This document shows, one piece after another, positions 8,565 through 30,150 of a stretch of DNA of 64,000 nucleotides (positions are counted from its first letter, which is position 1; each line of letters starts with the position of its first letter). The translations under genes and the position numbers were made by a program. Source of the stretch: an uncultured Gemmatimonadota bacterium (GTDB taxonomy: Bacteria; SM23-81; DAOVCL01); assembly GCA_964626665.1 (NCBI GenBank), contig CAZVGK010000001.1:141914-205913 (forward strand), in the 5' to 3' direction. Below the pieces are notes generated by a model that saw only the letters and a program-made list of their open reading frames with translations, searched no databases and had not been told where the DNA came from.

Positions 8565-8710
8565 GGAATGGACCTTCATCAATGATCAATTAACAATTAG
8601 CAATGGTCAATTAGCAAGTCTTAAAGAGGGAAAATCCTGAAGTGTCAATTTCCATTGATCATTGATTATTTCTGTGCCAGTCCGTGGCTATCGGTGGTGA
8701 ACAATTATTC
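8565..8710. repeat. Composite MITE-like intergenic repeat in the fliL-fliM spacer
   Basis: ccacggaa ... caattaacaattagcaatggtcaattagcaagtcttaaagagggaaaatcctgaagtgtcaatttccattgatcattg ... tttctgtgccagtccgtggctatcggtggtg. Confidence 0.7.
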
Positions 8711-8725
8711 CAATAGGAAGGAACA

Positions 8726-9730
8726 ATGCCGGGTATCTTATCCCAGGAGGAGATAGACCAATTAGTTTCATCGGTGTCTGAGGGCAAAGGTCAGGGGAGA
8801 AGGCCCCCTGGCGCTGAAAAGGAGGCGATCCCCTATGACTTCCGCCAGCAGAACATAATTCCTAAGGGGTCTTTGCACGCCTTCCAGATAGTCCACAGCG
8901 ATTTTGCCAAATCCTTGAGTGGCTTTCTCCTGAGGAGCGTAAAGACCGAACTAATCGTGAACTTGGCCACTGTCAACACCATTCCCTTAGGGGAGTTTAT
9001 AAAATCGCGGGAGAATCCCACTTATCTAAATTTAGTAAGGCTGAAACCCTTTGAGGGCAACCTGATTATAGATTCCTCTCCTAACTTGGTCTTCCTTCTT
9101 GTTGACCTCCTCTTCGGGGGGACGGGCAGTCCTCCTTCTACAAACGGGTTAATTACCCATATGGAAAGGAAGTTCATGCGGAAACTGATGGAAGGTATGC
9201 TCGAGGAGTTCAAAACCACCTGGGAGAAGATAACCCTCTTTCATCCTAAGATCGAAGAGGAGGAAACCGACCCCTCAATTGTGGGCTCACCATCTAACCT
9301 GGAGAACGCAATGATGGTCATCTACGAATTGAGCCTGGAAAAGGGATCAGAAACCCACCACCTCCTGAGTTTTTGTTATAGCGCTAAACTCCTCAAATCC
9401 CTGGTGGCCGTTCTGGGCCAGAAGAGAGGGGGAGAGGAGAGGGAAGTCCCTCCGCAAGAGCGGGATCAATCGGGGAAATTGAGGAAGAGCTTGGGTCAAG
9501 TGGAGGTCCCGGTGGAGGCAAAGTTGGGTGAGGCCCACCTGACCATTAGGGATATGATTGACCTGCAGGCAGGGGACATCATCAGGCTGAGCAACTATGT
9601 GGGTGGAGATCTAACGGTTGAGGTGAAGGGAAAGCCAAAGTTTCTTGCCCGTCCTGGGGCTTACCGGGGCAAGGCGGCCGTAGTGGTTACCTCAACCCTG
9701 AAGGAAGGAGTGGTGAAAGATGGCGAGTAA
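8726..9730 (+). CDS. fliM: Flagellar motor switch protein FliM
   Basis: N-terminal CheY-P binding motif (ILSQEEIDQLV), middle FliM domain, C-terminal FliN-like domain. Confidence 0.9.
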   Translation: MPGILSQEEIDQLVSSVSEGKGQGRRPPGAEKEAIPYDFRQQNIIPKGSLHAFQIVHSDFAKSLSGFLLRSVKTELIVNLATVNTIPLGEFIKSRENPTYLNLVRLKPFEGNLIIDSSPNLVFLLVDLLFGGTGSPPSTNGLITHMERKFMRKLMEGMLEEFKTTWEKITLFHPKIEEEETDPSIVGSPSNLENAMMVIYELSLEKGSETHHLLSFCYSAKLLKSLVAVLGQKRGGEEREVPPQERDQSGKLRKSLGQVEVPVEAKLGEAHLTIRDMIDLQAGDIIRLSNYVGGDLTVEVKGKPKFLARPGAYRGKAAVVVTSTLKEGVVKDGE

Positions 9731-10361
9731 AAAAGAGAAAGTGAGCCCACCTCCCCCGGAGGAGAAGCAGAGTAAAGAGGAGAAGGGAATTCCAGAGGTG
9801 GACGAAAATTTAGAGGAAAAGGATAAAAGCCAGAGGGAAGAGAAAACCCCTGAGGTAGCTGAAAATTTAGCGGGAGATCAGGAGGAAACTTCTGCTGGTG
9901 GAGGGGAGCAGGGTGGGGAACCTCTGGGAGAAGAACCAGGAGATGAGAGCAAAGCCTCCGGAGAGCAACCGGATCCTGATGCCAACTTAGAATGGCCAGA
10001 GGAGGATACCTCCTCTGGTGAAGAGTCAGCCCCCCAGGAGGAGGTGGCAGTTCAGGATGTCCAATTTGACCAGATTAAGCCCCAACAATCAAGTGGCCAA
10101 CCCAACAATATAGACATCCTCCTGGATGTTGACCTTCCCATCTCCGTGCAATTAGGAAAGACAACAATGACCATCCAGGAGCTCTTGGAAGTTGGCCCCG
10201 GTTCAGTGATCGAGCTGGACAAAATGGTGGGGAACCCAGTGGAGATCCTGGCTAACAACAAGACCATAGCCCAGGGAGAGGTAGTAGTTGTTGACGAAAA
10301 CTTTGGGGTGAAAATAACCTCCCTGATCAGCGCGGAAGAGAGGATAAAAAGCCTGAGATGA
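9720..10361 (+). CDS. fliN: Flagellar motor switch protein FliN/FliY with acidic N-terminal extension
   Basis: C-terminal SpoA/FliN domain (LDVDLPISVQLGKTTMTIQELLEVGPGSVIELDKMVGNPVEILANNKTIAQGEVVVVDENFGVKI). Confidence 0.85.
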   Translation: MASKKEKVSPPPPEEKQSKEEKGIPEVDENLEEKDKSQREEKTPEVAENLAGDQEETSAGGGEQGGEPLGEEPGDESKASGEQPDPDANLEWPEEDTSSGEESAPQEEVAVQDVQFDQIKPQQSSGQPNNIDILLDVDLPISVQLGKTTMTIQELLEVGPGSVIELDKMVGNPVEILANNKTIAQGEVVVVDENFGVKITSLISAEERIKSLR

Positions 10362-10906
10362 GGTTCCTCTTCCTGATAAGCTCCGTCCTAAATCCTCAGG
10401 GGCCTCCCCTTCCTCTCTCCTATCAGGATCCAACCCCCCTCTCCTCCGTGGGTTTCTGGGGCCTGGCGGGTAAAACCATTGGTTCACTCTTCCTTGTGCT
10501 GGGTTTAATTGTTTTGCTCATCTTTTTCCTCAAAAAACTCCACTTCCACAGCCCCTTCTCCAATGCCCGCTCTGGGATGATGAAGGTTATCTCTCACCAA
10601 ACTCTCCTCCCGAAAAGGGCCCTCTACTTGGTAAAGGTGGCTGATAAGTTCTTGGTTTTAGGGGTAACATCCTCGGAGATAAGTCTGATTACCGAACTGG
10701 AGAATGGGTTGGATGCCGATTTCGGATCTTCCCATCATCCCAGCGAATTTTCCCAACAGTTGGATAGTTTCCTCTCCAAATTCAAGGGTGGGGAGCCATC
10801 CCCGAAGAGGATGATATCCCTTCAATCAGACTTTCAGGGCAATCTAAGGAAGATACAGGAAAGAATAGGGAAACTGGAGAGGTTGGTCAACTCCAATTTG
10901 CAGTAG
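10358..10906 (+). CDS. Probable FliO/FliZ-like flagellar export protein (single-pass membrane protein)
   Basis: Position between fliN and fliP; one hydrophobic helix (IGSLFLVLGLIVLLIFFL); no sharper motif, start codon uncertain. Confidence 0.4.
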   Translation: MRFLFLISSVLNPQGPPLPLSYQDPTPLSSVGFWGLAGKTIGSLFLVLGLIVLLIFFLKKLHFHSPFSNARSGMMKVISHQTLLPKRALYLVKVADKFLVLGVTSSEISLITELENGLDADFGSSHHPSEFSQQLDSFLSKFKGGEPSPKRMISLQSDFQGNLRKIQERIGKLERLVNSNLQ

Positions 10907-10980
10907 CGCGGTGGCCAACCCCTGTTCTGCTGGGATCAGATCGGGGGGCTGACCACTCTGCCATCAAGGAGGTTTAAATC

Positions 10981-11754
10981 TTGAGAGATCAAAATTCATG
11001 GAAGAAGTTTAGATCGATCCTCCTGAGGAGGTTCCTTCCGCTGATCCTCCTGCTGTTTTTTTTCTCACCCCAGGCAAAGGCCTTTTCCTTTCCTCAGCTT
11101 CCGTTAGGGGGAGGGGGGACCCCCCAGAATGTCTCCACTGCCATAGAGATACTTCTCCTCCTCACCGTCATCTCCCTGGCCCCTGCCATCCTGGTCACCT
11201 TGACCTCCTTCACCCGCATTATTGTCGTTTTCTCCCTGTTGAGACGCTCTATGGGAACTATGCAGATGCCCCCCAACCAGGTGATGATCGGCCTGGCCCT
11301 TTTTCTCACCCTATTTGTAATGGCCCCCGTCTTCAATCAGATAAATGATCAGGCACTTAAACCATTTTTAGCCGAGAAGATAAGCCAACAGGAAGCCTAT
11401 GATCGCGGGATCCAGCCGCTGAGAGATTTTATGCTCAACCAAACAAGGGAGAAGGATCTGGCCCTCTTTGCCCATTTCGCTAAAATTGAGAGACCTAAGG
11501 GACCCTCTGACGTCCCTACCTATGTTATCATTCCCGCATTCATCATCAGTGAGCTGAAGACGGCCTTTCAGATGGGGTTTCTTATCTATTTGCCTTTTCT
11601 GATCATCGATATGGTGGTGGCCAGTGTGCTTATGTCAATGGGGATGTTGATGCTCCCCCCGATAATGATCTCCTTACCCTTTAAGATCCTCCTCTTTGTG
11701 ATGGTGGATGGATGGAATTTGGTGGTGAGATCATTGATAATGAGCTTTCACTAA
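10981..11754 (+). CDS. fliP: Flagellar export apparatus protein FliP (TTG start)
   Basis: Signal-peptide-like N-terminus and conserved FliP core ([25 protein letters not shown]); AGGAGG 8 nt upstream of the TTG. Confidence 0.9.
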
Positions 11755-11765
11755 AAGGATAAGGG

Positions 11766-12035
11766 ATGAGCCCAGAGACCTTTCTCTCCCTCTTTCGGGA
11801 GACCTTAATCACCACTCTTCTGGTGTCTGCACCTATGCTCCTTTCCGGGCTTTTGGTCGGGCTTTTAGTCAGCATATTTCAGGCGGTAACCTCAATTCAC
11901 GAGATGACCCTGACCTTTATCCCCAAGATCCTGGCGGTGGCCCTAGCCTTGCTCATTTTTCTTCCCTGGATGATAGCCAAACTGTTAGATTTTGCCTCTC
12001 ATCTCTTCATTAACCTCCTTTCCTATATCGGCTAA
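11766..12035 (+). CDS. fliQ: Flagellar export apparatus protein FliQ
   Basis: 89 aa, two TM helices, between fliP and fliR. Confidence 0.85.
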   Translation: MSPETFLSLFRETLITTLLVSAPMLLSGLLVGLLVSIFQAVTSIHEMTLTFIPKILAVALALLIFLPWMIAKLLDFASHLFINLLSYIG

Positions 12036-12037
12036 AT

Positions 12038-12817
12038 ATGAACCTCTCCTCCTTGGATCACCGTTCCCTTCTGGCCTTTAGCCTACTCTTTATTAGGGTG
12101 CTAGGGTTGATATTTGCGGCCCCCTTCTTTGGCAACACGGCCATCCCCAAGAGAACGAAGGTGGGGCTCTCTCTGGTCTTGGCCGGTCTCCTCCTCCCTT
12201 TTATTCCCTTTCCACCACCGGTCCCGGATGGTCCACTGCCCATAGCCCTTGCTGTAATTAAGGAACTTCTTATTGGCGTTATTTTGGGGTTTTCCGTCTT
12301 TCTGCTCTTTGAAGCCGTAGTCTTCTTCGGCCAGGTGGTTAGCTACCAGATGGGGTTTGCTATCGTCTCCTCCATTGATCCGGAATCCCAGCAAAGGGTC
12401 CCTATCATCGGAAAGTTTGAATACCTTTTGGTCTTTCTGGTCTTCCTAGCGGTGAACGGACACCACCTCCTCCTCTCCGGCCTCTACTCCAGCCTGCGGG
12501 TTATCCCCCTGGGGGAGGCATCCCTAAACTCCTCCCTCCTCCCCTTTATGATCGGTTCTACCAAAGGGGTATTTGCCATAGCCCTCAAGTTGGGGGCTCC
12601 TGTTATAGCTGCCCTTCTCTTCAGTGATTTAATAATGGGCCTGATGGCCAGGGCTATCCCTCAAATGAATGTTTTTATCATCGGTTATCCCATCAGGATC
12701 GGGGTTGGTTTTCTGGCCCTGGCCTTTGGCATCCCCCTTCTGGTGGGCAACCTGCATCAGCTTTTTCGGGGTTTGGGGGGGGAGATCGCTACCCTGCTCA
12801 GGATTTTAGCCCCCTGA
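12038..12817 (+). CDS. fliR: Flagellar export apparatus protein FliR
   Basis: 259 aa polytopic membrane protein immediately after fliQ. Confidence 0.85.
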   Translation: MNLSSLDHRSLLAFSLLFIRVLGLIFAAPFFGNTAIPKRTKVGLSLVLAGLLLPFIPFPPPVPDGPLPIALAVIKELLIGVILGFSVFLLFEAVVFFGQVVSYQMGFAIVSSIDPESQQRVPIIGKFEYLLVFLVFLAVNGHHLLLSGLYSSLRVIPLGEASLNSSLLPFMIGSTKGVFAIALKLGAPVIAALLFSDLIMGLMARAIPQMNVFIIGYPIRIGVGFLALAFGIPLLVGNLHQLFRGLGGEIATLLRILAP

Positions 12818-12825
12818 GTAGAGGC

Positions 12826-12920
12826 TTATACAATTATCAATTAGCAAGTTAAAATGAAATGAAGACCGAAGTGTCACTTTCCATTGATAATTGATAATTG
12901 ATCATGACCATTTCTTAGCG
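12826..12920. repeat. MITE-like intergenic repeat in the fliR-flhB spacer
   Basis: caattatcaattagcaagttaaaatgaa...gtgtcactttccattgataattgataattg...accatttcttagcggtgg; terminal inverted repeats caattatcaatt / aattgataattg. Confidence 0.7.
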
Positions 12921-12945
12921 GTGGACTTGAGCGCAAAGGAGAAAT

Positions 12946-14016
12946 ATGACCGAGGACTCCTTTCAGGAAAAGACTGAGAAGGCAACCCCCCGTCGGAGAC
13001 AAAAGGCCCGGGAAAGGGGGAATGTAGCTAAGAGCACCGAGTTGAACTCTGCCCTCATCCTCTTGGCCAGTCTTGCTGCTCTGGGATTTTTGGCCGCTGG
13101 TATGAGCAGAAGATTGATGGCTCTCTCTCGCTTCTTCCTCTCCCAGGGTTTTGCTATACAACTCAACCAGGTCAATCTCTATTCCTACTTTTGCTTTGTT
13201 CTCAAGGCAATTTTTACCTTATTTGCTCCCTTTCTCTTGGTGGTCGCCATCGCCGGGGTAGCTTCTAACCTGGCTCAGGTTGGTTTTCTCTTTACCCTGG
13301 AGCCCCTGAAACCAAAGCTAAGTACCCTCAATCCGCTGTCCGGGTTCAAGAGGCTTTTCTCCCTTAAGGGGCTCTTTGAACTACCCAAGGCGGTCTTCAA
13401 GCTAATTATTATCGGAATAATCAGTTATCTCACCATTAAGGGTAAGCTAACTCAATTCTTTCTCCTCTCTCAAATGGGATTAAATGCGATGTTAAAGGTT
13501 ATTGGGAAGGTTGCTTTACTCTTGGGGGTGAGGGTCTCCCTGGCGTTTCTCGTCCTGGCGGCAATTGACTATGCCTTTCAAAAGTGGGACTATGAAAAAA
13601 AGCTAAGGATGACCAAAGATGAGGTGAAAGAGGAGAGAAAGCAGTATGAGGGTGATCCATTGATCAAGGGAAGGATAAGGAGCGTGCAGAGGGAACTGGC
13701 TCGGAGGAGGATGATGAAGGAGATTCCCAAGGCCGATGTGATCATCACTAACCCTACTACCTTGGCGGTGGCCCTCAGGTATGATCCCGAAAAGATGTCT
13801 GCTCCTCAGGTGGTGGCCAAGGGGGCGAGGCTCCTGGCCCAGAAGATTATGGAATTGGCCAGGAAACATAATGTCCCCATAGTAGAGAACAGGAGGTTGG
13901 CCAGGCTGCTCTACAGAAAGGTCAAGGTTGGAGAGGAGGTACCTGTCGCCCTCTATCAGGCAGTGGCTGAGGTTCTTTCCTACATTTATAAGTTGAAGAA
14001 TAAGGTGATAGGCTAA
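12946..14016 (+). CDS. flhB: Flagellar export switch protein FlhB
   Basis: N-terminal MTEDSFQEKTEKATPRRRQKARERGNVAKS; autocleavage-type NPTT motif; GGAG RBS. Confidence 0.9.
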   Translation: MTEDSFQEKTEKATPRRRQKARERGNVAKSTELNSALILLASLAALGFLAAGMSRRLMALSRFFLSQGFAIQLNQVNLYSYFCFVLKAIFTLFAPFLLVVAIAGVASNLAQVGFLFTLEPLKPKLSTLNPLSGFKRLFSLKGLFELPKAVFKLIIIGIISYLTIKGKLTQFFLLSQMGLNAMLKVIGKVALLLGVRVSLAFLVLAAIDYAFQKWDYEKKLRMTKDEVKEERKQYEGDPLIKGRIRSVQRELARRRMMKEIPKADVIITNPTTLAVALRYDPEKMSAPQVVAKGARLLAQKIMELARKHNVPIVENRRLARLLYRKVKVGEEVPVALYQAVAEVLSYIYKLKNKVIG

Positions 14017-14163
14017 TAAAGCTTCGAATCTGTACAGATGGGGCTGCACGCTCTTTGTGGATGTTATCATCCACAAAGAGACTCCTTGCAAGCCCATGGT
14101 TACCAGAATGAAATATCGTCTCAAAGTTTAGTCACCTTAGCGAAGATAAGGCAACAGAAACCA

Positions 14164-16245
14164 ATGAGTAAACACCTTCCAGAAAATAGTTTTGTCTCCC
14201 AGCTAGCCAAGAGGGGAGATACCATTGCAGCCATTGGGGTGATTGTGGTTATTACCCTGATTGTCATCCCTTTACCCCCTCACCTGTTGGATGTTCTCCT
14301 CACCTTCAACATCGCCTTCTCCTTGATCATCATCCTGGTTTCTATGTATACCCTAAAGCCCCTTGACTTCTCCGTATTCCCCTCCCTTTTGTTGGTGGTC
14401 ACCCTCTTTCGGTTGGGCCTCAATGTATCTACCACCAGGCTTATCCTGTTGAAGGCCTATGCCGGAGATGTGATATTGGCCTTTGGCAATTTTGTGGTGG
14501 GGGGGAATTATGTGGTGGGGATAGTTATCTTCCTGGTGATAGTGGTTATTCAGTTTGTTGTTATTACCAAAGGAGCCACCAGGATAGCAGAGGTGGCGGC
14601 CAGGTTTACTTTGGATGCTATGCCGGGAAAGCAGATGGCCATTGATGCTGACCTCAATGCCGGCCTGATCGATGATGAAGAGGCCAGGAAGAGAAGGATG
14701 GAGATAGCCAGGGAGGCCAATTTCTATGGGGCAATGGATGGGGCATCTAAGTTCGTCAGGGGGGACGCAATTGCTGGCATCATCATCACTACGATCAATA
14801 TACTTGGCGGCCTGGTTATTGGAGTGCTCCAGAGGGGGATGCCCCTACCCACTGCCCTGCATACTTATACCTTGCTCACCGTTGGTGATGGGCTGGTGGC
14901 CCAGATCCCGGCCCTGGTTGTCTCCACTGCGGCGGGTATAATCGTCACCCGAGCTGCTGCTGAGGCGGATATGGGGGCCGATATAGTCAAACAATTGTTA
15001 GTGCAGCCAAAGCCCATTGCCCTGGTGGCCATCACCCTTCTTTTTGTGGGGTTGGTCCCTGGTTTGCCCATGGTCCCGTTCTTCATCCTTTCCGCAGCAG
15101 CGGGGGGCATTGCCTACTTCTCCCGCCAGGCGCAGAGAAGGTCGGAGGAGTTGCCCCCTCCAGAGGCTGACCTCCAACCACCCAAGGGGGGGATCGAGGA
15201 TATCAAACAGCTACTCCACATAGACCCTATGGAACTGGAGATAGGTTATGGGCTAATCCCCTTAGTGGACAAGGAACAGGGTGGTGATCTTCTCGATCGG
15301 GTCTCTATGATTCGCCGCCGCTCCGCCCTGGAATTGGGAATTATCGTTCCTCCCATTAGGATAAGGGATAATGTGGCCCTGGAGCCTGACTCCTATCTAA
15401 TTAAGATTAAGGGGACGGAGGTAACCAAAGGGAAGCTAAGGGGGGGGGCTCTCTTAGCTATGAACCCTGGCCTGGCTAAAGGTGAGATAGAGGGCACGCC
15501 CACATCTGAGCCGGTTTTTGGCCTTCCCGCCTACTGGATCGAGCCTTCCCAGAAGGGGAAGGCGGAGAGGATGGGCTACACCGTTGTTGAGCCTCCGGCG
15601 GTAGTGGCTACCCACCTATCCGAGGTGATCAGATCCCATGCCGATGAGCTGCTTGGTAGGCAGGATGTGCAGAACCTGGTAGATGGGATAAAGGAGAGCC
15701 ATCCGGCCGTGGTGGAGGAGCTTATCCCTAAGGTGATGGGAATAGGAGGGGTGCAGAAGGTCCTCCAGAGGTTGTTAAAGGAGCGAATAAGCATTAGGGA
15801 CCTGGTGACTATATTGGAGACTCTGGCAGATTATGGGCCCATGGTCAGGGATATAGACCAACTGACCGAATATGTAAGGCAATCCCTTTCCCGTTCCATC
15901 TGCAAACAGTTCTCCGATGAGCAGGGGGAGATAAAGTGTCTTACCCTGGATCCTAAGTTGGAGCAGATTCTCTCTGATTCCATTAAAAGGTCGGAGACAG
16001 GGGCAACCCTGGCCTTGGAGCCGGGAATCGTCCGTAAGCTCTTCGATAGCATATCCGCTAAGCTGGAGAAGTTTGCCCCGATCAATCAGCAGCCTGTAAT
16101 CCTCTGCCCGGCAAGCATAAGGGTCCACCTCCGCAGACTAATGGAAGGAATCCTGCCCAATTTGGTTGTTCTCTCCTATAAGGAGATTGCCCCTTCCATA
16201 AAGGTAAACTCCATAGGGATGATAGGACTGGAAGATGAGAGTTAA
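14164..16245 (+). CDS. flhA: Flagellar export apparatus protein FlhA
   Basis: FHIPEP family membrane domain and cytoplasmic domain; start placed at the internal ATG (MSKHLPENSF...), the 14038 start in the ORF track looks like an upstream over-extension. Confidence 0.9.
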   Translation: MSKHLPENSFVSQLAKRGDTIAAIGVIVVITLIVIPLPPHLLDVLLTFNIAFSLIIILVSMYTLKPLDFSVFPSLLLVVTLFRLGLNVSTTRLILLKAYAGDVILAFGNFVVGGNYVVGIVIFLVIVVIQFVVITKGATRIAEVAARFTLDAMPGKQMAIDADLNAGLIDDEEARKRRMEIAREANFYGAMDGASKFVRGDAIAGIIITTINILGGLVIGVLQRGMPLPTALHTYTLLTVGDGLVAQIPALVVSTAAGIIVTRAAAEADMGADIVKQLLVQPKPIALVAITLLFVGLVPGLPMVPFFILSAAAGGIAYFSRQAQRRSEELPPPEADLQPPKGGIEDIKQLLHIDPMELEIGYGLIPLVDKEQGGDLLDRVSMIRRRSALELGIIVPPIRIRDNVALEPDSYLIKIKGTEVTKGKLRGGALLAMNPGLAKGEIEGTPTSEPVFGLPAYWIEPSQKGKAERMGYTVVEPPAVVATHLSEVIRSHADELLGRQDVQNLVDGIKESHPAVVEELIPKVMGIGGVQKVLQRLLKERISIRDLVTILETLADYGPMVRDIDQLTEYVRQSLSRSICKQFSDEQGEIKCLTLDPKLEQILSDSIKRSETGATLALEPGIVRKLFDSISAKLEKFAPINQQPVILCPASIRVHLRRLMEGILPNLVVLSYKEIAPSIKVNSIGMIGLEDES

Positions 16246-17275
16246 GGTGTTTTCCGCCCCCTCAGTGAGGGAAGCGCTGAACAGGATAAAGGACGAACTT
16301 GGCTCCCAAGCGGTTATCCTGAAAACAGAGCAAGTGAAGGGGAAAGTAGAGATAACTGCAGCCACTGATGTCGATTATCCACCCCTACAGAGGCAAAGGG
16401 GTAGGGTAGAGGGGATATACGATGTCTTAGATGAGCTCAGGGAGAAGGTTGACGTCATCTCCCAGACCTTGGTTTCCTCCCCTTTTCTCCCTCGCTCTCC
16501 CCTTTCCCAGCTCTGGTTTGTGCTCTTGGGGCGAAGGATAGGGGAGGAGACTTCCCTCCAACTAATCAAAAACCTGAAGAAAGACCTCTTTTCCGGGGGA
16601 GATGAGGAGGTGTTGTGGGATGAGCTCATCTCCCAACTGAGTTTGTTCCTCCCCTCGGAGGAGATTGGGGAAAGGCCAAAGGGGCCAGCCGTCGTCGCCC
16701 TCGTTGGACCCACCGGAGTAGGGAAGACCACAACTATCTCTAAATTAGCAGTTAACTTCTCAACTCTGCAGAGGAAGAAGGTTGCCCTTATCAGCATAGA
16801 CAACTTCCGCCCGGCAGCAGGGGAGGAATTAGCCGAGATTGCTCAGAGCTTGGGAATCCCCTTGGAGCTGGCCAAGACTCCAGGGAGTATGGGAAAACTG
16901 CTGAGGGGTTTTCGGGATAGGGATTTCGTCTTTGTAGATACCGCAGGCCATAGCTATCTGGATACCCAGCAGATTTCAGAGTTGAAATCCTTTCTCCAGC
17001 GGCTGCCCTTGCCAGAGATCCATCTCGTCCTTTCCTCTGCGACTAAGCCGGAGGACAACCTTGAGGCCTGGAGGAGATTTCACCCTATACCCATCCACAA
17101 GCTCCTCTTTACCAAGCTTGATGAGACCACCTCCCCAGGGGGGATAATGGAGACCATTTTTAAGGCAAAGAGGCCGGTCTCCTACCTGACCAATGGACAG
17201 AGGATACCAGAGGATTTATGGGAAGCAGAAAGCAGAACGTTAGCCGAGATAGTTATGGGAGAGAGGACCTTATGA
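16235..17275 (+). CDS. flhF: Flagellar biosynthesis GTPase FlhF (SRP-type)
   Basis: GTPase motifs ALVGPTGVGKTTT, DTAGHS, TKLDET. Confidence 0.85.
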   Translation: MRVKVFSAPSVREALNRIKDELGSQAVILKTEQVKGKVEITAATDVDYPPLQRQRGRVEGIYDVLDELREKVDVISQTLVSSPFLPRSPLSQLWFVLLGRRIGEETSLQLIKNLKKDLFSGGDEEVLWDELISQLSLFLPSEEIGERPKGPAVVALVGPTGVGKTTTISKLAVNFSTLQRKKVALISIDNFRPAAGEELAEIAQSLGIPLELAKTPGSMGKLLRGFRDRDFVFVDTAGHSYLDTQQISELKSFLQRLPLPEIHLVLSSATKPEDNLEAWRRFHPIPIHKLLFTKLDETTSPGGIMETIFKAKRPVSYLTNGQRIPEDLWEAESRTLAEIVMGERTL

Positions 17276-18263: not shown

Positions 18264-18269
18264 TAGAAG

Positions 18270-20557: not shown

Positions 20558-20568
20558 GGGGAAATTTG

Positions 20569-20633
20569 CAATTATCAATTAACAATGAGCAATTAAGAAA
20601 TCCCCCCTATACAATGGAAAAAGAGCAGAAAGA
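20569..20633. repeat. Partial copy of the caattatcaat repeat upstream of the DUF342-like gene
   Basis: caattatcaattaacaatgagcaattaagaaa...acaatggaaaaag. Confidence 0.5.
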
Positions 20634-21575: not shown

Positions 21576-21764
21576 GAAGTGAAAAAGGGCCACATTTTTA
21601 TTTTTGACTTTTCGCAAGTGAAAAGGCAGTTGATGCTTATTGTCCTCTCAGATATCGGTAAGTCCAGAGTAAAGATCCGACCCCATCTTAACCGAGTTGA
21701 TTTCCTTTCTTTGACCTTACCTGTTAGACCCCCAAAAATGGGGGACGGTGGTGCAGAGAGTGCA

Positions 21765-22310
21765 TTAGCTCTTCCATTTATTTGAGATCCTTTCCCCGAT
21801 AAGACTTATCTCTTTCTTACTTACAACCCTGTTGATACATGAAGTAGTCACCCCTAAATGACGGGCAACTTCTGCTCCACTCATCCCTAACTTCTTTAAG
21901 GCCAATTGAGCAACTATAAACCTTCTATACCTATTTTGGGCTTCCTTTGTCCCTTCTCCAAATCTGGCCAATACCTCTTCTACTCTCTGTCATGACCTTT
22001 CTATCTTCCCCATTAAGGCTGAATGACCACACCAGGGATACCGATCAAGCTCTTCTAAGTTCTTCACCAATCCTGCTCGATATGGACATATCTGGTAAGC
22101 TCTAACAAAAAAGGGGTTTCTTCACATAGAATTGATTTATATCGGTTTTGAAAGAGGTATCCCTGCCTATTATTGAAGCTTACGGCGTATCCAGTCATCA
22201 GTTTCCTCATAGCCGAAGATAGAGATGTAACCCTGTGCGAATCAGGAGATGAAAATGGTTGGGAATCAAAGCCCAAGCATATATCTGCCCCATCGTCCCC
22301 TATGCTGTCT
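21765..22310 (-). pseudogene. Degraded IS200/IS605-family or RAYT-like (Y1 HuH) transposase, broken by frameshifts and in-frame stops
   Basis: Three reading frames on the - strand give consecutive pieces: ...IYAWALIPNHFHLLIRT (HuH motif), MRKLMTGYAVSFNNRQGYLFQNRYKSIL..., VKNLEELDRYPWCGHSALMGKIE, and a C-terminal HTH-like tail; no intact ORF. Confidence 0.55.
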
Positions 22311-22456
22311 GATAAGTATCTTCAAGAATATAGACTTTCACCTTTCAGATGAAAAAAGGGGATTAAACTCAATTTTTAAAAGCTCTTTATTTTAAATATC
22401 TGGTGATAATCTTGTGAAATCTCGTGGTTTCTTAACGCATAATCTGGGTTAAAGTT

Positions 22457-23671
22457 TTATCCTCTCTCTTGAATTTCAGGGGGGATTTGGCCGGGTTTTT
22501 TTATCCTTTTAATCAGGGCAGGGATTACCTGGAAGAGATCGCCCACTATAGCATAGGTGGCCACTTTGAAGATGGGGGCCTCTGGGTCCTTGTTTATGGC
22601 CACGATCACCTTTGCTGACTGCATGCCCACCAGATGTTGGATGGCCCCTGATATGCCGCAGGCTATATAGAGTTGCGGACAGACGGTCTTTCCGGTCTGA
22701 CCAACCTGATGGGAGTAGGGGATCCAACCGGCATCAACCGCGGCCCGGGAGGCCCCTACAGCTCCCCCTAAGGCTCTGGCCAACTCCTCTATCAGGTCAA
22801 ATTTAGAGGGATCACCTAAGCCCCTTCCCCCGGAGACGATGATGTCGGCCTCGGCTATGTTGATCGTCTCCCCCTCCTCCTTGACCACCTTGAGGAGCTT
22901 GCTGCGGGAGGGAAGCTCCTTCGGTTTAAACTCCTTGCGGATTAGTTGGCCCTCCCTCTTCTGGTCAACTGATCCTGCCCTCATTACCTTAGGTCTCACC
23001 GTGGCCATCTGGGGGCGGTGATGGGGGCAGGTGATGGTGGCCATAATATTCCCCCCAAATGCAGGACGGGTCTGGAGGAGAAGGCCGTTTTCCGGGTCGA
23101 TCTCCAGTCCCGTGCAGTCCGCGGTTAGACCCGTCTTTAATTTAGTGGCCACCCGGGGGATGAGGGATCTCCCCAAGCTAGTCCCCCCTCCGAGGACTAT
23201 CTCCGGTCGGTACTCCCGGATGAGGGCGACCAAGGCCTGGGTATAGGGCTCCACCAGAAAGTCCTCCAATTGAGGTGAGTCAACCAGGTAGACCCGGTCT
23301 GCCCCCCACTGGATCAGCTCCGCAGCCTTATCCTCTACCCCCCAGCCAAGCAGGACGGCGGATAGCTCGTCCCCTCTGGCCTGGGCGAGCCTTCTGCCCT
23401 CACCCAGAAGCTCAAAGCTTACCGGATTTAATTTCCCCTCTCTTTGCTCGGCGAAGATCCAAATCCCGGAATAGCCTCTTTCAGCCGGAAGCTCGCTCTT
23501 CCCCCTAATGAGGATGGCATTGAACTTGCAGGAGTCAACACAGGCTCCACAGAGAGTGCATCCCTGGCCGATAACGGCTAAGCCCTCGACCATCTCGATG
23601 GCTCCATAGGGGCAGACCCCCACGCAGGCTCCACATCCCACACACCTTTCTTGAATGACCTCTATGTTCAT
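22457..23671 (-). CDS. etfA: Electron transfer flavoprotein alpha subunit with N-terminal 2x[4Fe-4S] ferredoxin domain
   Basis: Two CxxCxxCxxxC(P) motifs, then ETF-alpha FAD-binding C-terminus ([33 protein letters not shown]); start set at internal ATG (MNIEV...). Confidence 0.85.
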
Positions 23672-23681
23672 AATATTTAAA

Positions 23682-23711
23682 AAAATAAGGGCCTCGGCTC
23701 TGGGACCCTTA
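23682..23711 (-). terminator. Candidate intrinsic terminator hairpin downstream of the rplQ-containing transcript
   Basis: Perfect 8-bp stem (aataaggg / cccttatt) with 14-nt loop, followed by a T-run on the - strand; abuts the etfA start. Confidence 0.35.
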
Positions 23712-23847
23712 TTTTTCACCTTGTTACAGTTTACAGGGATCAGTAGTCATGCGGTTATCGGAGCCTAGTTATCAGTTGTCACAGATTTCCTCCGCTCCCC
23801 GTCAACTGCCCTCTGATCCCTTGGGGTTGATCCCCGGGACTGTTATT

Positions 23848-24171
23848 CTATCCCTTGATTGCCTTTCTTAGCTTATACCGGATTTGGTCCATCTCATCCT
23901 TGGTAATCTTTTTGTCCTTAAGGGCCTTCCTAATGTATTTTACGACCTCGCGGACCTCTTCCTTCCTTACTCTCTTTTTTTTGAGGGCGGCCCTAAACTT
24001 CCGGAAAAGGGGCTTTACCCCTGTCCTGTCATAATTGGGGGGGAGGGACTGCTCGACCTTCACCTCCAATCCCTTAAACCCGTATTCTAACAGTCTCCCC
24101 TTGAGAAGGATTACGGCCAAAAGGATTAGCAAGGCCACGCCCAAGATGGAGAGCAAACAGCCCTTCCTCAT
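23848..24171 (-). CDS. Hypothetical small membrane-anchored basic protein (107 aa)
   Basis: ORF immediately downstream of rplQ; N-terminal hydrophobic helix, Lys/Arg-rich tail. Confidence 0.35.
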   Translation of the reverse strand: MRKGCLLSILGVALLILLAVILLKGRLLEYGFKGLEVKVEQSLPPNYDRTGVKPLFRKFRAALKKKRVRKEEVREVVKYIRKALKDKKITKDEMDQIRYKLRKAIKG

Positions 24172-24575
24172 TTCTTTTCTGTTTTCCCAGCAGGTTTCTC
24201 AGGTTCAACCTTCTCCACCCCCTCCTTGACCAATTGCAGGAGGGAGAGGGAAGCGCCATCCCCAGGACGGAAGCCGAGCTTGATCCTTCTCGTGCAGCCT
24301 CCGTTCCTCTCCCCATACCTCAGAGCGATATCATCAAATAGCTTAGCTATTATTGATTTATGCGGAAGCGTCCTCAGGGCAATTCTTCGGGAATGGAGGT
24401 CACCCTTCTTGCCCAAGCTGATTAGCTTCTCGGCCAACCTCTGGGCCTCCTTTGCCTTGACACTGGTAGTAGTTATGCTCTCGTGGAGGAAGAGGGAAGA
24501 GACCAGATTCCGCAGCGTTGCCCCTCGGTGGGCAGGATTTCTGCCCAGATGGTTGCCCTTCTTTAGGTGTCTCAA
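24168..24575 (-). CDS. rplQ: 50S ribosomal protein L17
   Basis: MRHLKKGNHLGRNPAHRGATLRNLVSSLFLHESITTT; follows rpoA. Confidence 0.9.
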   Translation of the reverse strand: MRHLKKGNHLGRNPAHRGATLRNLVSSLFLHESITTTSVKAKEAQRLAEKLISLGKKGDLHSRRIALRTLPHKSIIAKLFDDIALRYGERNGGCTRRIKLGFRPGDGASLSLLQLVKEGVEKVEPEKPAGKTEKK

Positions 24576-25555
24576 GATTTCTCCCCCTCCAGATAAGGCG
24601 AGACATCCATGCCAAAGGAGAGACCAAATTCGGCTAAGACCCTCTGTAGCTCGGAGAGGGATTTACGTCCAAAATTCCTGTATTTGAGCATCTCTGACTC
24701 TGTCTTTTGTACGAGATCATTTAAGGTGACTATATTGGCTGCCCGCAGACAATTGTTTGATCTCACGGATAGCTCTAATTCCTCTACCTTCATCTTGAGC
24801 AGGTTTCTTACCCGCAAGACCTCTTTGTTTACCTTAGTCTCCTCTACCTCCTCAAACTTGGTGGGGTGAAGTATGAATAGCTCCACATGCTCCTTTAATA
24901 TCTGGGCCGCATAGCTGAGGGCCTCCCCTGGGGTGATGCTCCCGTCCGTGCGGATCTGCAGGGTAAGCTTTTCAAAGTCTACCCGGTGGCCCACCCTGGT
25001 GCTATCCACTTGATAGTTGACCTTGGTCACCGGGGTGAAGATGGAATCGAGGTAGATAGTGCCAAATGGGTGATTCTGCTTTTTGTTCTGCTCAGCGGTA
25101 ACATAGCCTCTGCCAAAGCCAACTTCTATCTCACCCTTGATTTGAGCTCCATCATTTAAGGTGGCCAACCTGTGGTCAGGGTTTAGGATGAGGAAGTTCC
25201 CCCCCCCATCGATATCACCCGCTTTAAACTCTCCCTTACCCGATTTCTCAATGCCCACCATAACCGGTTTGTCCGCTAAGAACTTTATCCTTACCTCCTT
25301 TAGATTAAGCACTATTTCTGGGATATCCTCTACTACACCGGGAATGGTGGAATATTCATGAGGGACCCCTTCGACCCGGAGGGCGGTTATCGCTGCCCCT
25401 TGCAGAGAGGAGAGGAGAACCCGGCGGAGGGAATTCCCTAAGGTGATCCCAAAACCCCTCTCTAAGGGTTCGATGATGAACTTGCTGTAAACATCTGTCG
25501 CTGATTCTTCTTCTGCTACTAAGCTTTTGGGAAGTTGCAGGCTTGTCCACTTCAT
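24572..25555 (-). CDS. rpoA: DNA-directed RNA polymerase alpha subunit
   Basis: Conserved N-terminal assembly domain (IEPLERGFGITLGNSLRRVLLSSLQGAAI) and C-terminal domain (SVRSNNCLRAANIVTLNDL). Confidence 0.95.
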   Translation of the reverse strand: MKWTSLQLPKSLVAEEESATDVYSKFIIEPLERGFGITLGNSLRRVLLSSLQGAAITALRVEGVPHEYSTIPGVVEDIPEIVLNLKEVRIKFLADKPVMVGIEKSGKGEFKAGDIDGGGNFLILNPDHRLATLNDGAQIKGEIEVGFGRGYVTAEQNKKQNHPFGTIYLDSIFTPVTKVNYQVDSTRVGHRVDFEKLTLQIRTDGSITPGEALSYAAQILKEHVELFILHPTKFEEVEETKVNKEVLRVRNLLKMKVEELELSVRSNNCLRAANIVTLNDLVQKTESEMLKYRNFGRKSLSELQRVLAEFGLSFGMDVSPYLEGEKS

Positions 25556-25575
25556 CTAAAGATACTTCCTCCTTC

Positions 25576-26205
25576 TCACTTAGAATAGAGCTCCACAATC
25601 AATTTTTCGGTGATCGGCTCAGGTATCTGCTCTCTGGTGGGGAGGTCTAGGACCTCACCCTCCAACTTGGCCTTGTCTATCCTCAGCCAGCTCAGCTTAC
25701 CAAGCCTATCTGCGGCCTTCAGAGAGTCATGGATTATGGCTAAATCCCGGCTCTTCTCCCTTACCTTTACCACATCCTTTGGCTTTACTTGGTAGGAGGG
25801 GATGTTCACCTTCCTCTCGTTCACCTGGAAGTGGCTATGCCTCACCAACTGCCTGGCTGTTTTTCGAGAGGGGGCAAAACCGAGCCGGTAGACGGTGTTG
25901 TCTAACCGGGATTCTAAGGCCCGCAGAAGGTTCTCCCCGGTGATACCCTTTTTCCTTTCAGCCTTTTGGAAGTAGTTTCTGAACTGTTTCTCCATTATTC
26001 CATAGATCCTCCGCACCTTCTGCTTCTCCCTTAATTGAAGGCCGTACTCAGACATCCGGCGACGGCGGAGGACCCCATGTTGTCCGGGAAATGATTCCTT
26101 TTTCTCCAGGGCACACTTATCCGTGTAACACCGATCGCCCTTCAGAAAGAGTTTGGTCTTCTCCCGGCGACAGAGCTTGCAAACGGGGCCCTTGTATCTA
26201 GCCAT
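25576..26205 (-). CDS. rpsD: 30S ribosomal protein S4
   Basis: [31 protein letters not shown]. Confidence 0.95.
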
Positions 26206-26208
26206 CTC

Positions 26209-26604
26209 TTATACCCTCCTTCGCTTGGGAGGACGACAACCATTATGAGGAATGGGAGTAACATCCCTTATCGCTGTAATATTCAACCCGGCAGCCTGCA
26301 GGGATCTGATGGCGGCCTCCCTCCCGGATCCTGGCCCCTTCACTCTGACCTCCAAACTCTTCATCCCTCTATCCATTGCCCCTTTAGCAGAGGCCGTAGC
26401 CGCCTGCCCGGCCGCAAATGGGGTGCTCTTCTTAGAACCTTTAAAACCCGCCCTCCCCGCCGAGGCCCAGGATATAACCTTCCCTTGGGTATCGGTAATG
26501 GTTATTATCGTGTTGTTAAAGGTTGCCTGAATGTGAGCCACCCCTGATACCTCCACCCTCCCCTTTTTTCTTTTGGGCCTTCCTTTCGCTTTCTTATCTG
26601 CCAA
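26209..26604 (-). CDS. rpsK: 30S ribosomal protein S11
   Basis: [18 protein letters not shown]...[18 protein letters not shown]. Confidence 0.95.
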
Positions 26605-26620
26605 TTTTCACACCCCCTGA

Positions 26621-26992
26621 TTACCTTTTCCTTTTGGCTCCAATAGTTTTGCGGGAGCTCCTTCTCGTGCGGGAATTGGTTTTCGTCCTCTGGCCCCTCA
26701 CCGGAAGGTTCCTCCTGTGTCTAAATCCGCGATAAGAGCCGATTTCCATCAACCTCTTTATATTCATAGTCACCTCTGCTCTCCTGCTCCCTTCCACCTT
26801 GTAATCCGACTCTATAACCGACCTCAGCTTGGAGACTTCCTCCTCGCTGAGCTTGTTCACTCTAGTATCAGGAGAGACCCCGGTTTTCTTCAATATTTTA
26901 CTTGCAGAGGAGCGGCCTATACCATAAATATAAGTAAGGGCAATCTCTATCCTCTTGTCCTTTGGCAAATCAACGCCTGCTATCCTGGCCAA
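26621..26992 (-). CDS. rpsM: 30S ribosomal protein S13
   Basis: [26 protein letters not shown]. Confidence 0.95.
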
Positions 26993-27007
26993 CCTTAAAC
27001 CTCCTTT

Positions 27008-27142
27008 TTAACCTACCCTTCTGGGCTTACCCCTTTGTCTCTGTTTGTGACGGGGGTTTGAGCAGATGACCCGGAGGACCCCCTTCCTTCTAATTACCTT
27101 ACAGTGTTTGCAGAGGGGTTTTATGGAAACTTTGACTTTCAT
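27008..27142 (-). CDS. rpmJ: 50S ribosomal protein L36 (44 aa, below the ORF-track size cutoff)
   Basis: Hand translation of the - strand gives [44 protein letters not shown] with the C-x2-C...C-x4-H zinc ribbon; lies between infA and rpsM. Confidence 0.85.
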
Positions 27143-27357
27143 TTGTACCTGTAGGTTATCCTTCCTCGATTTAGGTCATAGGGGGAGAGTTCCACAGCCA
27201 CCCTATCTCCTGGGAGTATCTTGATATAATGCATCCTCATCTTCCCGGAGATGTGGGCTAAAACCCGGTGGCCATTTTTTAACTCCACCCTGAAAGTGGC
27301 ATTGGGAAGGGGCTCAATCACTACCCCGTCAACCTTTATCGTCTCCTGTTTAGCCAT
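27139..27357 (-). CDS. infA: Translation initiation factor IF-1
   Basis: [53 protein letters not shown]; start set at MAKQE. Confidence 0.9.
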
Positions 27358-28003
27358 CCCTGGCCTCAAGCTTTTCCGTTATTTCCTCAAAGACCGCCGT
27401 GGCATCTCCATCTCCCTCTACATCTATTAAGATCCCCTGAGCTCGGTAATACTCCTGCAACTCCTTTATCTCCTTAGCATAGATGGAGAGCCTTTTCTTG
27501 ATGGTTTGCGGGCGATCGTCTTCCCTTTGATAGAGCTCCCCCCCGCAGCGATCACAGATACCATCCGATTTTGGAGGGGCGGTGATTAAGTTATAGACGG
27601 CTCCACAGGATGAACAGACCCTCCGATTGGAGAGCCGACGCAGGATAACCTCCTGAGAAACCTCTATATCAATGACCCCAGTGAGAGTCCAATCCATATC
27701 CCTGCCTATTGCCTCTAACCCTTCGGCCTGGGCCAGGTCGCGGGGAAAACCATCTAAGATGAACCCTTCTGTACAGTCTTCTCCATGGAGTCTTAGCTTG
27801 ACCAACTCCATCATAATCTCATCAGGGACAAGTTCTCCCTTATCCCAAAACCTCTTGGCTTTCTTCCCCCAAGAAGAACCATCCCTCACAGCAGACCTCA
27901 ATATCTCCCCCGTAGAGATGTGGGGTATTCCATATTCCTGGCTGAGCATCTCTGCCTCAACGCCTTTCCCTGCCCCGGGTGGTCCCAAGATTACCAATCT
28001 CAT
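27350..28003 (-). CDS. adk: Adenylate kinase (zinc-lid type)
   Basis: P-loop GPPGAGKG; lid CSSCG...CDRCG. Confidence 0.9.
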
Positions 28004-29310
28004 CTCCTCCCCTTTATCTTCCCCTTCTTCATAAATCCATCATAATGCCTCATTACCAGATGAGACTCCACCTGTTTTAGGGTATCTAAGGCCACCCCCA
28101 CGATGATCAGAACGGAGGTTCCTCCAAAGAAGAAGGAGACATCCATTGACTGCATTAGAAAAAAGGGTAGGATGGCAATCGCGGCAAAGGAGAGGGCCCC
28201 AGGGAGGGTGATGCGGGTGAGTATTCTGTCTATGTAGTCTGCCGTCCTCTTCCCTGGCCGCACACCAGGGATGAAACCGCCATACCTCTTCATATTGTCT
28301 GCCAATTCCACCGGATTGAAGACGATGGCCGTGTAGAAGTAAGCGAAGAATACTATCAAGAGGGCATAGACGATGGAGTAAACAGCAGCACCAGGTGTAA
28401 ACCAGTTAGCAATTCCAGTTAATAACTCGCTCTTAGGGAAAAAAGTGGTGATGGTGCGGGGGGCAAACATCAGGGACTGGGCGAAGATGATGGGAATTAT
28501 CCCCGCGGCGTTCATATTAAGGGGGATGTGAGTGGACTGTCCACCATAGATCTTTCTCCCCACCACCCTTTTGGCATACTGCACCGGTATCCTCCTCTGT
28601 GCCTGGGTAATGATAACAACAAAGCTTATAACGGCCACCATAATGGCCAGGACCATCAACCCCTGAAAGGGAGAACGGGTGCCAGCGGCTAACTGCCTGC
28701 CTTCGTTGAGCACCGATCCCGGAAGCCTGGCTAATATCCCCACATAGATGATTAACGAGATCCCATTGCCAATCCCCTTCTCGGTCATCTGTTCCCCAAT
28801 CCACATAAGAAAGATGGTCCCTGTGGTCAGGGTAAGCATAGTCAAAAGTCTAAAACCAATCCCCGGGTGAACTACCGCAGAGATCCCCTCTGAGGTGACG
28901 ATGCTCTCCAAAAATATGCTCGCCCCATAGGATTGAAGGATACAGATGAGGATGGTGCCATACCTGGTGTACTGGGTTATCTTTCTCCTGCCCTCCTCCC
29001 CCTCTTTGTGCAGCTTCTGAAAGTAGGGGACGACAGCCCCTAAGAGTTGCATAATGATGGAGGAGGTGATGTAGGGCATTATCCCCAGGCCAAAGATGGC
29101 AGCGTTCTTAAAGGCTCCCCCAGCAAATATGTCGTAGAGGCCAAAGAGAGTTCCCTGAGCCTGGGCAAAGAAGCTTTTTAAAACCCCCATATCTATACCC
29201 GGAGTGGGAACATGGCAGCCAATTCGGTAAACAACAAGGAGGCCAATGGTAAAGAGAATCCTTTTCCTTAATTCGGGGATTTTGAATGTGTTTTGAAATG
29301 TCTGAAACAT
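28000..29310 (-). CDS. secY: Preprotein translocase subunit SecY
   Basis: 436 aa polytopic membrane protein in the canonical position after rplO. Confidence 0.9.
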   Translation of the reverse strand: MFQTFQNTFKIPELRKRILFTIGLLVVYRIGCHVPTPGIDMGVLKSFFAQAQGTLFGLYDIFAGGAFKNAAIFGLGIMPYITSSIIMQLLGAVVPYFQKLHKEGEEGRRKITQYTRYGTILICILQSYGASIFLESIVTSEGISAVVHPGIGFRLLTMLTLTTGTIFLMWIGEQMTEKGIGNGISLIIYVGILARLPGSVLNEGRQLAAGTRSPFQGLMVLAIMVAVISFVVIITQAQRRIPVQYAKRVVGRKIYGGQSTHIPLNMNAAGIIPIIFAQSLMFAPRTITTFFPKSELLTGIANWFTPGAAVYSIVYALLIVFFAYFYTAIVFNPVELADNMKRYGGFIPGVRPGKRTADYIDRILTRITLPGALSFAAIAILPFFLMQSMDVSFFFGGTSVLIIVGVALDTLKQVESHLVMRHYDGFMKKGKIKGRR

Positions 29311-29311
29311 C

Positions 29312-29770
29312 TCAGATTACCTCCGTGGTTCCCCCACTTGCCTCTATCTTTTCCTTGGCCGATCTACTGAATGCCTGAGCCCGGATGATCAGGGCTCCTT
29401 CCACCTGACCTTCGCCTAAAACCTTTAAGGGGATGGCTGTCCTCTTGATCAAACCATCTTTCTTTAAAAGGATTGGATCAATGACCTGGGAATCGGCATA
29501 TCTGCTCAGTTGCTTGAGGTTAACCACCTGATAGCGGACCGGGAAATGGTGCATCATAACAGATTTCTTCCCCCTCTTCATTCCCCTTTTAGGTACCCTT
29601 CTCTCCAGAGGCATCTGTCCCCCCTCAAACCAGGCCTTTGACTTGGAGCCGGATCTGGATCTTTGCCCTTTCTCCCCCCGACCGCTGGTTTTCCCCAGGC
29701 CTGAGCCAGGTCCCCTACCCACCCTTTTTCTCCTCTTCTTTGCCCCTGATGGCGGTCTAATCTGCATCAT
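29312..29770 (-). CDS. rplO: 50S ribosomal protein L15
   Basis: [22 protein letters not shown]. Confidence 0.9.
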
Positions 29771-29966
29771 TACAAAACTCCTCGACGGCTACCAAATGGC
29801 TTACCTTCCTCAGCATCCCCCTTATTTGCGGGGTATCCAGATGGGTCACTGTGTGATTTAACCTTTTAATCCCCAAAGCCTTAATGGTTAATTTCTGTCT
29901 GAGTGGATACCCGATCGCACTCTTTCTCTGAGTTATCTTCAATTTTTTGGCCATCCAATCTCCCAA
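29757..29966 (-). CDS. rpmD: 50S ribosomal protein L30
   Basis: [33 protein letters not shown]. Confidence 0.85.
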
Positions 29967-29999
29967 GAAAAAAATGACGGTTCACCACTGATTACTGAT

Positions 30000-30150
30000 C
30001 CCTGTTTTTCTGTGCATAGTCCGTGGTTATCTGTGGTAAATTATTACTCAATTAACGATTAGCAAGTTAAAATGAAGCCAGAAAATCCTGAGATGCGGGC
30101 CATTTTCCATTGATAATTGTTCATTGACCATTTCTTGGTCTGTCCGTGGT
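30000..30150. repeat. Composite AT-rich intergenic repeat (MITE-like) in the rpsE-rpmD spacer
   Basis: Contains ctgtttttctgtgcatagtccgtggttatctgtggt, then caattaacgattagcaagttaaaatgaa...gaaaatcctga...ttccattgataattg...accatttcttgg...tccgtggtg; related copies at 8565-8710 and 12826-12920. Confidence 0.7.

Follow-up and report, generated by a model that had tools for sequence, protein, structure and literature searches.

Among described bacterial repeats, the closest in behaviour to the elements reported here is Chunjie of Geobacter uraniireducens (Chen et al. 2008, via PMC10969869), which in that summary has conserved inverted ends and direct repeats, variable size and many partial copies without ends, with one copy lying inside an operon that has stayed intact. 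Correia elements (NEMIS) of Neisseria are about 100-200 bp long with inverted ends, are often co-transcribed, can be inverted and form end-paired RNA hairpins (PMC10969869), and the pneumococcal BOX, RUP and SPRITE repeats are modular, clustered, nested and intergenic, as are the elements here (PMC3049150, PMC10969869). MITEAba12 of Acinetobacter, whose parent is ISAba12, is small and non-coding, has inverted ends, is moved in trans and falls under the definition of a bacterial miniature inverted-repeat transposable element (MITE) that we adopt here (PMC6382973). Here we describe a MITE family in a 64,000-nucleotide stretch of DNA (the window) from an uncultured Gemmatimonadota bacterium (GenBank assembly GCA_964626665.1, contig CAZVGK010000001.1, positions 141,914 to 205,913), where copies occupy the spacers of flagellar and ribosomal operons. 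The family is previously undescribed, familiar in kind but unusually clear in its setting, and it brings no new principle; a full-text literature search for its end sequences returned only unrelated primers.

The likeness to Chunjie is one of description only, host and sequence being unrelated as far as known, and the present family differs in lying in essential ribosomal and flagellar operons, in re-creating a ribosome-binding site and in swapping interiors between subtypes. RNase III cleaves Correia elements, which also have strong promoters and an integration host factor (IHF) site, whereas the family here shows no promoter excess and no IHF consensus: the two window matches to WATCAAnnnnTTR both lie outside the elements and are at chance level. 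BOX, RUP and SPRITE are built of different modules, and they too resemble the family by description only. The duplications also differ, in that Correia elements duplicate TA and MITEAba12 duplicates 9 bp, against 8 bp here, and to our knowledge BOX is not bounded by an 8-bp duplication. The family belongs to none of Chunjie, Correia and BOX/RUP/SPRITE.

We class the family as a MITE because its members are small, non-coding and AT-rich, carry inverted ends and a duplication of fixed length, and occupy dispersed sites that are filled in some genomes and empty in others; every testable feature of a MITE is present apart from an identified parent. The best explanation, which we consider very probable, is that these non-coding elements with inverted ends were mobile through 8-bp staggered insertion, are tolerated between genes and were remodelled afterwards.

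A repeat search together with blastn-short of the spacers against the window gave collinear multi-module matches between spacers (best E = 1e-19). The module TTTCCATTGATMATTG has four matches in the window against 0.09 expected by chance, and TCCGTGGnnATCnGTGGTRAA has five (up to three mismatches) against 0.07. A first-pass annotation, made from the letters alone, had named five stretches that share a set of modules; all five do carry them, and the self-alignment it proposed as a check gave multi-module collinear similarity, not merely low-complexity matches. Its description of the ends did not hold. It had taken caattatcaatt/aattgataattg, with their CAATTA arms, as terminal inverted repeats, but these are the arms of an internal palindrome (hairpin), and the real ends hold the CCGTGG-containing module 'tccgtggtg'. 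The two ends are GTAAYnnTTCACCACGGAwwnyCACGGA and its inverse, terminal inverted repeats of about 22-29 nt with the layout GTAAYnn-TTCACCACGGA-wwny-CACGGA; in each end, two CACGGA units (three in some cases) follow one another at a spacing of 10-11 bp.

Between these ends the interiors are modular, with at least three types. Aligning the loci on the end motif gives a canonical type I layout that runs GTAAYnn-TTCACCACGGATAACCACGGACT-agCACAGAAAAACAGGGATCAG..., continues through CTGATnn and AGAATTn heptamer arrays and closes with ...GCTTTTTTCCGTGAGATTCCGTGGTGAA-nnrTTAC, with no central palindrome. Type II has the same ends around the palindromic core CAATTAnCnATTAGCAAG ... GAAAATCCTGA ... TTTCCATTGATAATTG, and was found in two window copies (B and E below) and in L138, L160 and L170 (three-digit handles denote fetched loci). 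A third interior (type III), of about 300 bp, occurs in L159 and L169. What the annotation had described as the element was therefore real as a repeat but covers a single kind of interior, type II, within a broader modular family. Complete copies measure 100-190 bp, with one of 304 bp, inside the range of about 50-600 bp that the MITE definition gives (PMC6382973), and none holds an open reading frame (ORF) of 60 or more codons confined to the element; their GC content is 31-39% against 51% for the window, and identity among copies is 75-95% (median 85%).

The family and its duplications are distributed in the window as follows, with strand given where one was assigned.
8543-8550: left target-site duplication of copy B, TCCAATAG, including the fliL stop codon TAG
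8551-8708: copy B, complete, 158 bp, type II interior, between the fliL stop and the fliM ribosome-binding site
8709-8716: right target-site duplication of copy B, TCCAATAG, followed by the fliM ribosome-binding site GGAAGGA
32238-32245: target-site duplication of copy F, CTCCTTTC, on the gene strand GAAAGGAG, the working rpsN ribosome-binding site
32246-32390, minus strand: copy F, complete, 145 bp, canonical type I, between rplE and rpsN and codirectional with the genes (nhmmer E=7e-34)
32391-32398: second duplication copy of F, CTCCTTTC, abutting and overlapping the rplE stop codon
29967-29973: left target-site duplication of copy E, GAAAAAA, with 7/8 bases matching the right copy
29974-30159, minus strand: copy E, 186-bp composite inside one duplication, between rpsE and rpmD
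30160-30167: right target-site duplication of copy E, GAAAAAAG
12826-12925: copy C, type II, old and degenerate, in the fliR-flhB spacer
965-1024: part of mosaic spacer A, half of a type II core, inverted (reverse complement of 8623-8673)
1034-1115: part of mosaic spacer A, from an unrelated repeat family
1146-1203: part of mosaic spacer A, one type I end (...TTCCGTGAGCTTCCGTGGTAAACTGTTA), 95% complementary to 32247-32301
20568-20597: fragment D, 30 nt, a CAATTAn heptamer array only
43096-43158: fragment G, a type I interior piece (GCAATTAAGAATTttGAATTAAGAATGA) directly 3' of the rplW stop

Complete copies in the window are thus B, E and F, and the others (A, C, D and G) are either fragmentary or degenerate. 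Copy B has the ends GTAACACTTACCACGGA (left) and TCCGTGGCTATCGGTGGTGAACAATTAT (right) and a GC content of 38% in the 51% window. Copy E consists of an internally deleted type I unit (29974-30047) followed by a type II unit (30048-30159), and copy C has a truncated left end, a right end shrunk to GCGGTGGAC and no recognisable duplication. Fragment D is found in the window and L169 and is missing in L168; fragment G and 36848-36887 have a 40-nt direct repeat in common. Neighbouring genes confirmed by Pfam are fliK-like/flgD, fliL/fliM, fliR/flhB, a fliK-like gene/fapA, rpsE/rpmD and rplE/rpsN. The loci of the first-pass annotation are real, with the bounds of two moved to 8551-8708 (from 8565-8710) and 29974-30159 (from 30000-30150); two of its five (961-1000 and 20569-20633) are only fragments, and it had missed the complete copy at 32246-32390 and the fragments at 1146-1203 and 43096-43158.

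Insertion is recorded directly in the flanks. With the termini set 7 nt outside TTCACCAC, a duplication test on all end pairs gave perfect 8/8 duplications at six independent sites (window B, TCCAATAG; window F, CTCCTTTC; L129/L163; L142; L159; L169) and 7/8 duplications at three further sites, while displaced control windows gave no 8/8 case and one 7/8 case. For comparison between genomes, relatives were fetched via FlhB (81-86% identity) and ribosomal protein L5 (84-93%), plus an outgroup (52%). At fliP-fliQ the junction CTAAAAGGATAAGGGATG is empty in the window and two relatives, and L169, the only filled case, has a 149-bp type I element with AAAGGATA on each side. At rplE-rpsN the junction GGTAGAAAGGAGAAGGTTTGGCC is empty in L173 and L174, and in the window and L172 an element lies between two copies of GAAAGGAG; L131 is a further filled orthologue of this site. 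The rpsE-rpmD spacer is 8 nt in L174, and in the window and L172 it holds an element between two copies of TTTTTTC. Outgroup spacers are so short (fliR-flhB 21 bp, fliP-fliQ 7 bp, flhB-flhA 2 bp) that the affected junctions must normally be tight. These duplications and empty sites bear out the earlier proposals that the elements are or were mobile and that they widened tight junctions, as seen in the empty rpsE-rpmD site of L174 and the 21-bp fliR-flhB spacer of the outgroup; the suggested look for target-site duplications yielded the six perfect 8-bp sites.

The same signatures bear on two other accounts of how the repeats spread. REP/BIME-like or IS200/IS605-derived palindromes, moved as single-strand hairpins by a tyrosine (HUH) transposase, would fit the long imperfect palindrome of the type II interior and the strictly intergenic position of the elements; such elements lack target-site duplications and long inverted ends, however, whereas here we find 8-bp duplications and ends of 22-29 nt, and type I copies have no central palindrome, which makes this origin very unlikely. 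A chimeric product of metagenome assembly, joined at repeats, might be suspected because the ribosomal-operon contigs of the clade are mostly short and L169 begins inside an element. Against this, the flagellar locus of the window recurs with the same repeat junctions in six independent assemblies (L001-L006; JGI and Logan), and orthologous filled sites are present in a separate NCBI metagenome-assembled genome. Since identical junctions appear in six independently assembled contigs, we conclude that the elements are not assembly artefacts, and the chance that they are is next to negligible.

Copies beyond the window, which the annotation had proposed to count, number in the dozens. Scanning metagenomes for the 23-nt end motif yielded 41 loci in a wide variety of flanks, and an nhmmer profile search gave 63 matches in 374 kb. 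The two-unit end motif occurs seven times in the window and three times each in L169 and L172, as against none in 82 kb of other relatives and the outgroup and four in 862 kb of unrelated genomes. Because the motif is frequent in the window, L169 and L172 and absent from other relatives, the family is expanded in one sub-lineage, that of the window and its closest sampled relative. Sequence chosen regardless of repeats has about one family locus per 6-8 kb, a density that is an extrapolation and not a genome-wide census. A scan of reference genomes with the 16-mer TTTCCATTGATMATTG, too short a pattern, gave chance matches only, none with a second module. The family looks moderately old, and some insertions are common to species with about 93% identical L5. 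On the same contig, 18 kb of sequence flanking the window holds further family pieces, including an element of about 370 bp. This element (L176:113-483 and 643-867, 8 kb left of the window) has the same inverted ends; on one side of it is a cobalamin riboswitch aptamer (Rfam RF00174, 89.5 bits, minus strand), on the other the beginning of the gene downstream of that aptamer.

The positions of the copies suggest how insertion into essential operons came to be harmless. All distinct type I copies (27/27) are intergenic, and surviving copies typically lie a few bases from the upstream stop codon, which the window duplications abut or include. Through the distal duplication copy the downstream gene regains its ribosome-binding site (GAAAGGAG for rpsN; TCCAATAG then GGAAGGA for fliM). 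At rpsE the insertion fell in the last codons, where the terminal GTAA of the element gives the stop codon (30156-30158), and ribosomal protein S5 ends in ELFS* in the window and L172 as compared with ELFA* at the empty site of L174. A re-created ribosome-binding site and a donated stop codon would explain why insertions are tolerated in the spc ribosomal and flagellar export operons. Terminator-like sites are not clearly above the level of shuffled sequence, none lies inside an element on the gene strand, and the elements persist in essential operons, so they are presumably read through within the operon transcript.

Position and orientation also speak to a regulatory role. The elements could be cis-regulatory operators for a response regulator, TCCGTGG direct repeats at an 11-bp period that were spread by recombination and not by transposition. 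The ends do hold 7-nt direct repeats 10-11 bp apart, and a start codon follows several of the copies at a distance of 15-50 nt. Direct repeats of 7 nt at such a spacing are the typical layout for winged-helix regulators. But copies are also found downstream of convergent gene ends and in both orientations, the neighbouring genes are functionally unrelated, the duplications and empty sites are signatures of insertion, and close relatives with the same operons lack the elements; we therefore regard operators as highly improbable. The annotation had likewise argued from orientation against a promoter or operator, and this argument stands: both orientations recur among distinct type I copies (roughly 11 with and 7 against the flanking genes), and promoter-like sites in the elements are at shuffle level with no excess.

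RNA-level evidence was weighed in the same way. The Rfam search (Rfam 15) gave no match at gathering threshold or E<=1. The consensus fold of 22 copies contains only an invariant end stem with no compensatory pairs, and single-sequence folds reach z of about 0 to -3 against shuffles, with the antisense strand equal or stronger. The RNA folding that had been proposed as a check thus returned the end stem and modest stability, and nothing further. These folds matter for the idea that the family is a MITE by origin that the host has retained, with paired ends serving as RNase III/RNase E processing sites or as stabilising hairpins that uncouple cistrons, or with heptamer arrays that bind a host protein. 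Its ends pair in the minimum-energy folds of copy B, copy F and the L169 copy, filled sites are common to species with about 93% identical L5, and Correia and ERIC elements act in such ways (PMC10969869). Yet the fold scores are weak and matched on the antisense strand, no compensatory changes are seen, copies lie in both orientations, one and the same site can take different interiors, an inverted core or a 70-bp deletion, and close relatives manage without the elements, so that retention for a host function seems quite unlikely to us.

We therefore return to a MITE family remodelled after insertion, in which, as orthologous sites show, heptamer units are gained or lost, parts of interiors deleted, palindromic cores inverted and whole interiors exchanged, the last with ends and duplication staying in place. 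Length differences among type I copies fall in the internal heptamer arrays (GGGATCA/GTAATCA units) as a gain or loss of 7 nt, and internal deletion is another change seen across orthologous sites. L155 (type I) and L138 (type II) have left flanks and ends that are 100% identical around different interiors. At fliL-fliM, where the window has a type II interior, L169 has type III and shares with the window the unusual right end GGCTATCGGTGG and the flank, and the variant in L171 is 258 bp long. That interiors differ where the ends are identical points to interior exchange by recombination between copies. In the fliR-flhB copy, L168 has the core of about 58 nt in the opposite orientation to that of the window (52/58 identities to the reverse strand), with collinear flanks on either side, and a 70-bp deletion separates L169, in which the core is deleted, from L170, which has the same FlhB protein. 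Phase-variable core inversion was considered and rejected for now: the six assemblies of the window's species show one orientation, and the inversion is seen only between species.

As for the machinery, a DDE-type transposase encoded elsewhere would bind the element ends, and insertion through an 8-bp staggered cut would leave the 8-bp target-site duplication. The IS66 family has an 8-bp direct repeat and a 20-30-bp terminal repeat starting GTAAGCG (PMC11946415). The ends here resemble it in the duplication length and the GTAA start; they begin GTAAC, GTAAT or GTGAT, agree with GTAAGCG in only the first four bases and run from GTAAC/T into TTCACCACGGA. Among the fetched loci we saw no IS66-type transposase flanked by such ends, and an IS66-like parent is only a lead. 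Other families with 8-bp duplications, namely ISL3, IS256, IS6, IS1595 and ISAs1, are also possible parents. Short elements with similar CCGTGG-repeat ends are present in unrelated metagenome contigs (L128, L136, L156, L161), so the cognate transposase family is probably widespread. Two candidate partners were ruled out: the transposase in L167, the only one seen in the fetched loci, whose insertion sequence has its own different ends (ACCCAAGTTTGACA), and a 6.3-kb insert beside fragments G and H, whose genes are for a C25 peptidase and a FlgD_ig-domain protein, with none for a transposase. The L167 insertion sequence (L167:414-2404) codes for a DDE_Tnp_1 transposase of 555 aa, and a type I copy is about 100 bp away.

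Four points weigh against the account of a mobile MITE family tolerated within operons. The search for a parent, by paired ends 0.4-3.5 kb apart and ORF inspection in the fetched loci, turned up no autonomous element sharing these ends in the roughly 0.4 Mb of sequence fetched, nor did two viral-contig scans or a plasmid blastn. Several copies (C, L145, L148 and others) have no duplication. The highest identity between copies is 95%, and current activity is not demonstrated. Co-transcription and the absence of polarity are inferred and not demonstrated.

Two broader ideas go beyond this account. The repeats may act as a recombination scaffold that remodels the most highly expressed operons by capturing secreted-protein genes (C25 peptidase, type IX secretion C-terminal-domain) into the S10/spc operons, a role that we hold to be unlikely. 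Less likely again, the 8-bp duplication and the subterminal unit arrays might point to a transposase family undescribed in bacteria.

This MITE family comes from an uncultured deep-branching lineage, for which no FlhB from beyond the clade exceeds 53% identity, and provides clean before-and-after insertion sites in operons usually deemed untouchable (spc ribosomal, flagellar export). It offers a concrete route to harmless insertion, in that the 8-bp duplication regenerates a ribosome-binding site and an element end can supply a stop codon, and it implies that this host can do without tight translational coupling at L5-S14 and S5-L30. The repeats probably also explain the poor assembly of the ribosomal-operon contigs of the clade.

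The ribosomal region holds further inserts. A 6.3-kb insert lies within the S10 ribosomal operon between rplW and rplB (36751-43153), bracketed by the 40-nt direct repeats 36848-36887 and 43105-43144, and its secreted-protein cargo lies between repeat fragments G and H. It carries two genes on the minus strand, one (37026-41471) for a 1481-aa Peptidase_C25 protein with beta-helix and type IX secretion C-terminal domains, the other (41489-42703) for a 404-aa FlgD_ig-domain protein. In L172 the rplW-rplB spacer is only 178 bp, and in L173 a similar cargo is found at the rplX-rplE junction instead. A direct repeat of 53 nt (91% identical) lies at or just beyond the 3' end of the FlgD_ig gene (41489-41541) and 1.2 kb upstream (42708-42760), which suggests a decayed tandem paralogue. 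A second insert, between rpsJ and tuf (45042-48353), encodes a 630-aa type IX secretion C-terminal-domain protein and a 466-aa PQQ_2-like protein; it has 42-46% GC against 51% and is absent in L172, where only a partial 90-aa ORF with no domain call precedes rpsJ. The borders of this second insert showed no pieces of the repeats. Two tuf copies, seen as a 249-nt direct repeat of 95% identity (48447-48695 and 63752-64000), flank the rpoBC/ribosomal cluster.

Other repeats accompany the family. Upstream of rplB, at 36775-37015 (also L172:2150-2290), lies a distinct MITE-like family of CACGAAT units with the ends GAACACGAATGACACGAATAAACGAATC... and ...GGAATTCGTGTT, whose arrays often abut type I ends (L133, L134, L152, L160). 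A short repeat family (ggtagaaccccgattctgccacctaccgccgtcagatgagggcatctgacgg...) occurs at 1034-1115 and 4618-4683, and also in L165 (three times), L132, L142, L146, L149 and L172. The flhB-flhA spacer holds a perfect hairpin, CTCTTTGTGGATGTTATCATCCACAAAGAG (14047-14081), followed by a degenerate CCGTGG-type motif; the hairpin is kept in L169/L170 and repeated in L144, L152 and L165.

In the flagellar operon, a 507-aa protein encoded between flgE and flbD (4728-6251) is conserved in all relatives and has weak or faint domain matches only (Vgb_lyase; faint NHL, PKD, SGL and Big_9), with internal repeats of about 123 nt. About 130 nt at 22312-22450, upstream of an electron transfer flavoprotein (ETF)/ferredoxin gene (22457-23719, minus strand), are 76-78% identical to stretches in L134, L137, L150, L157 and L164. 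This segment has no Rfam match, its counterpart in L150 lies about 80 nt upstream of an ORF, and it may be a shared leader or operator.

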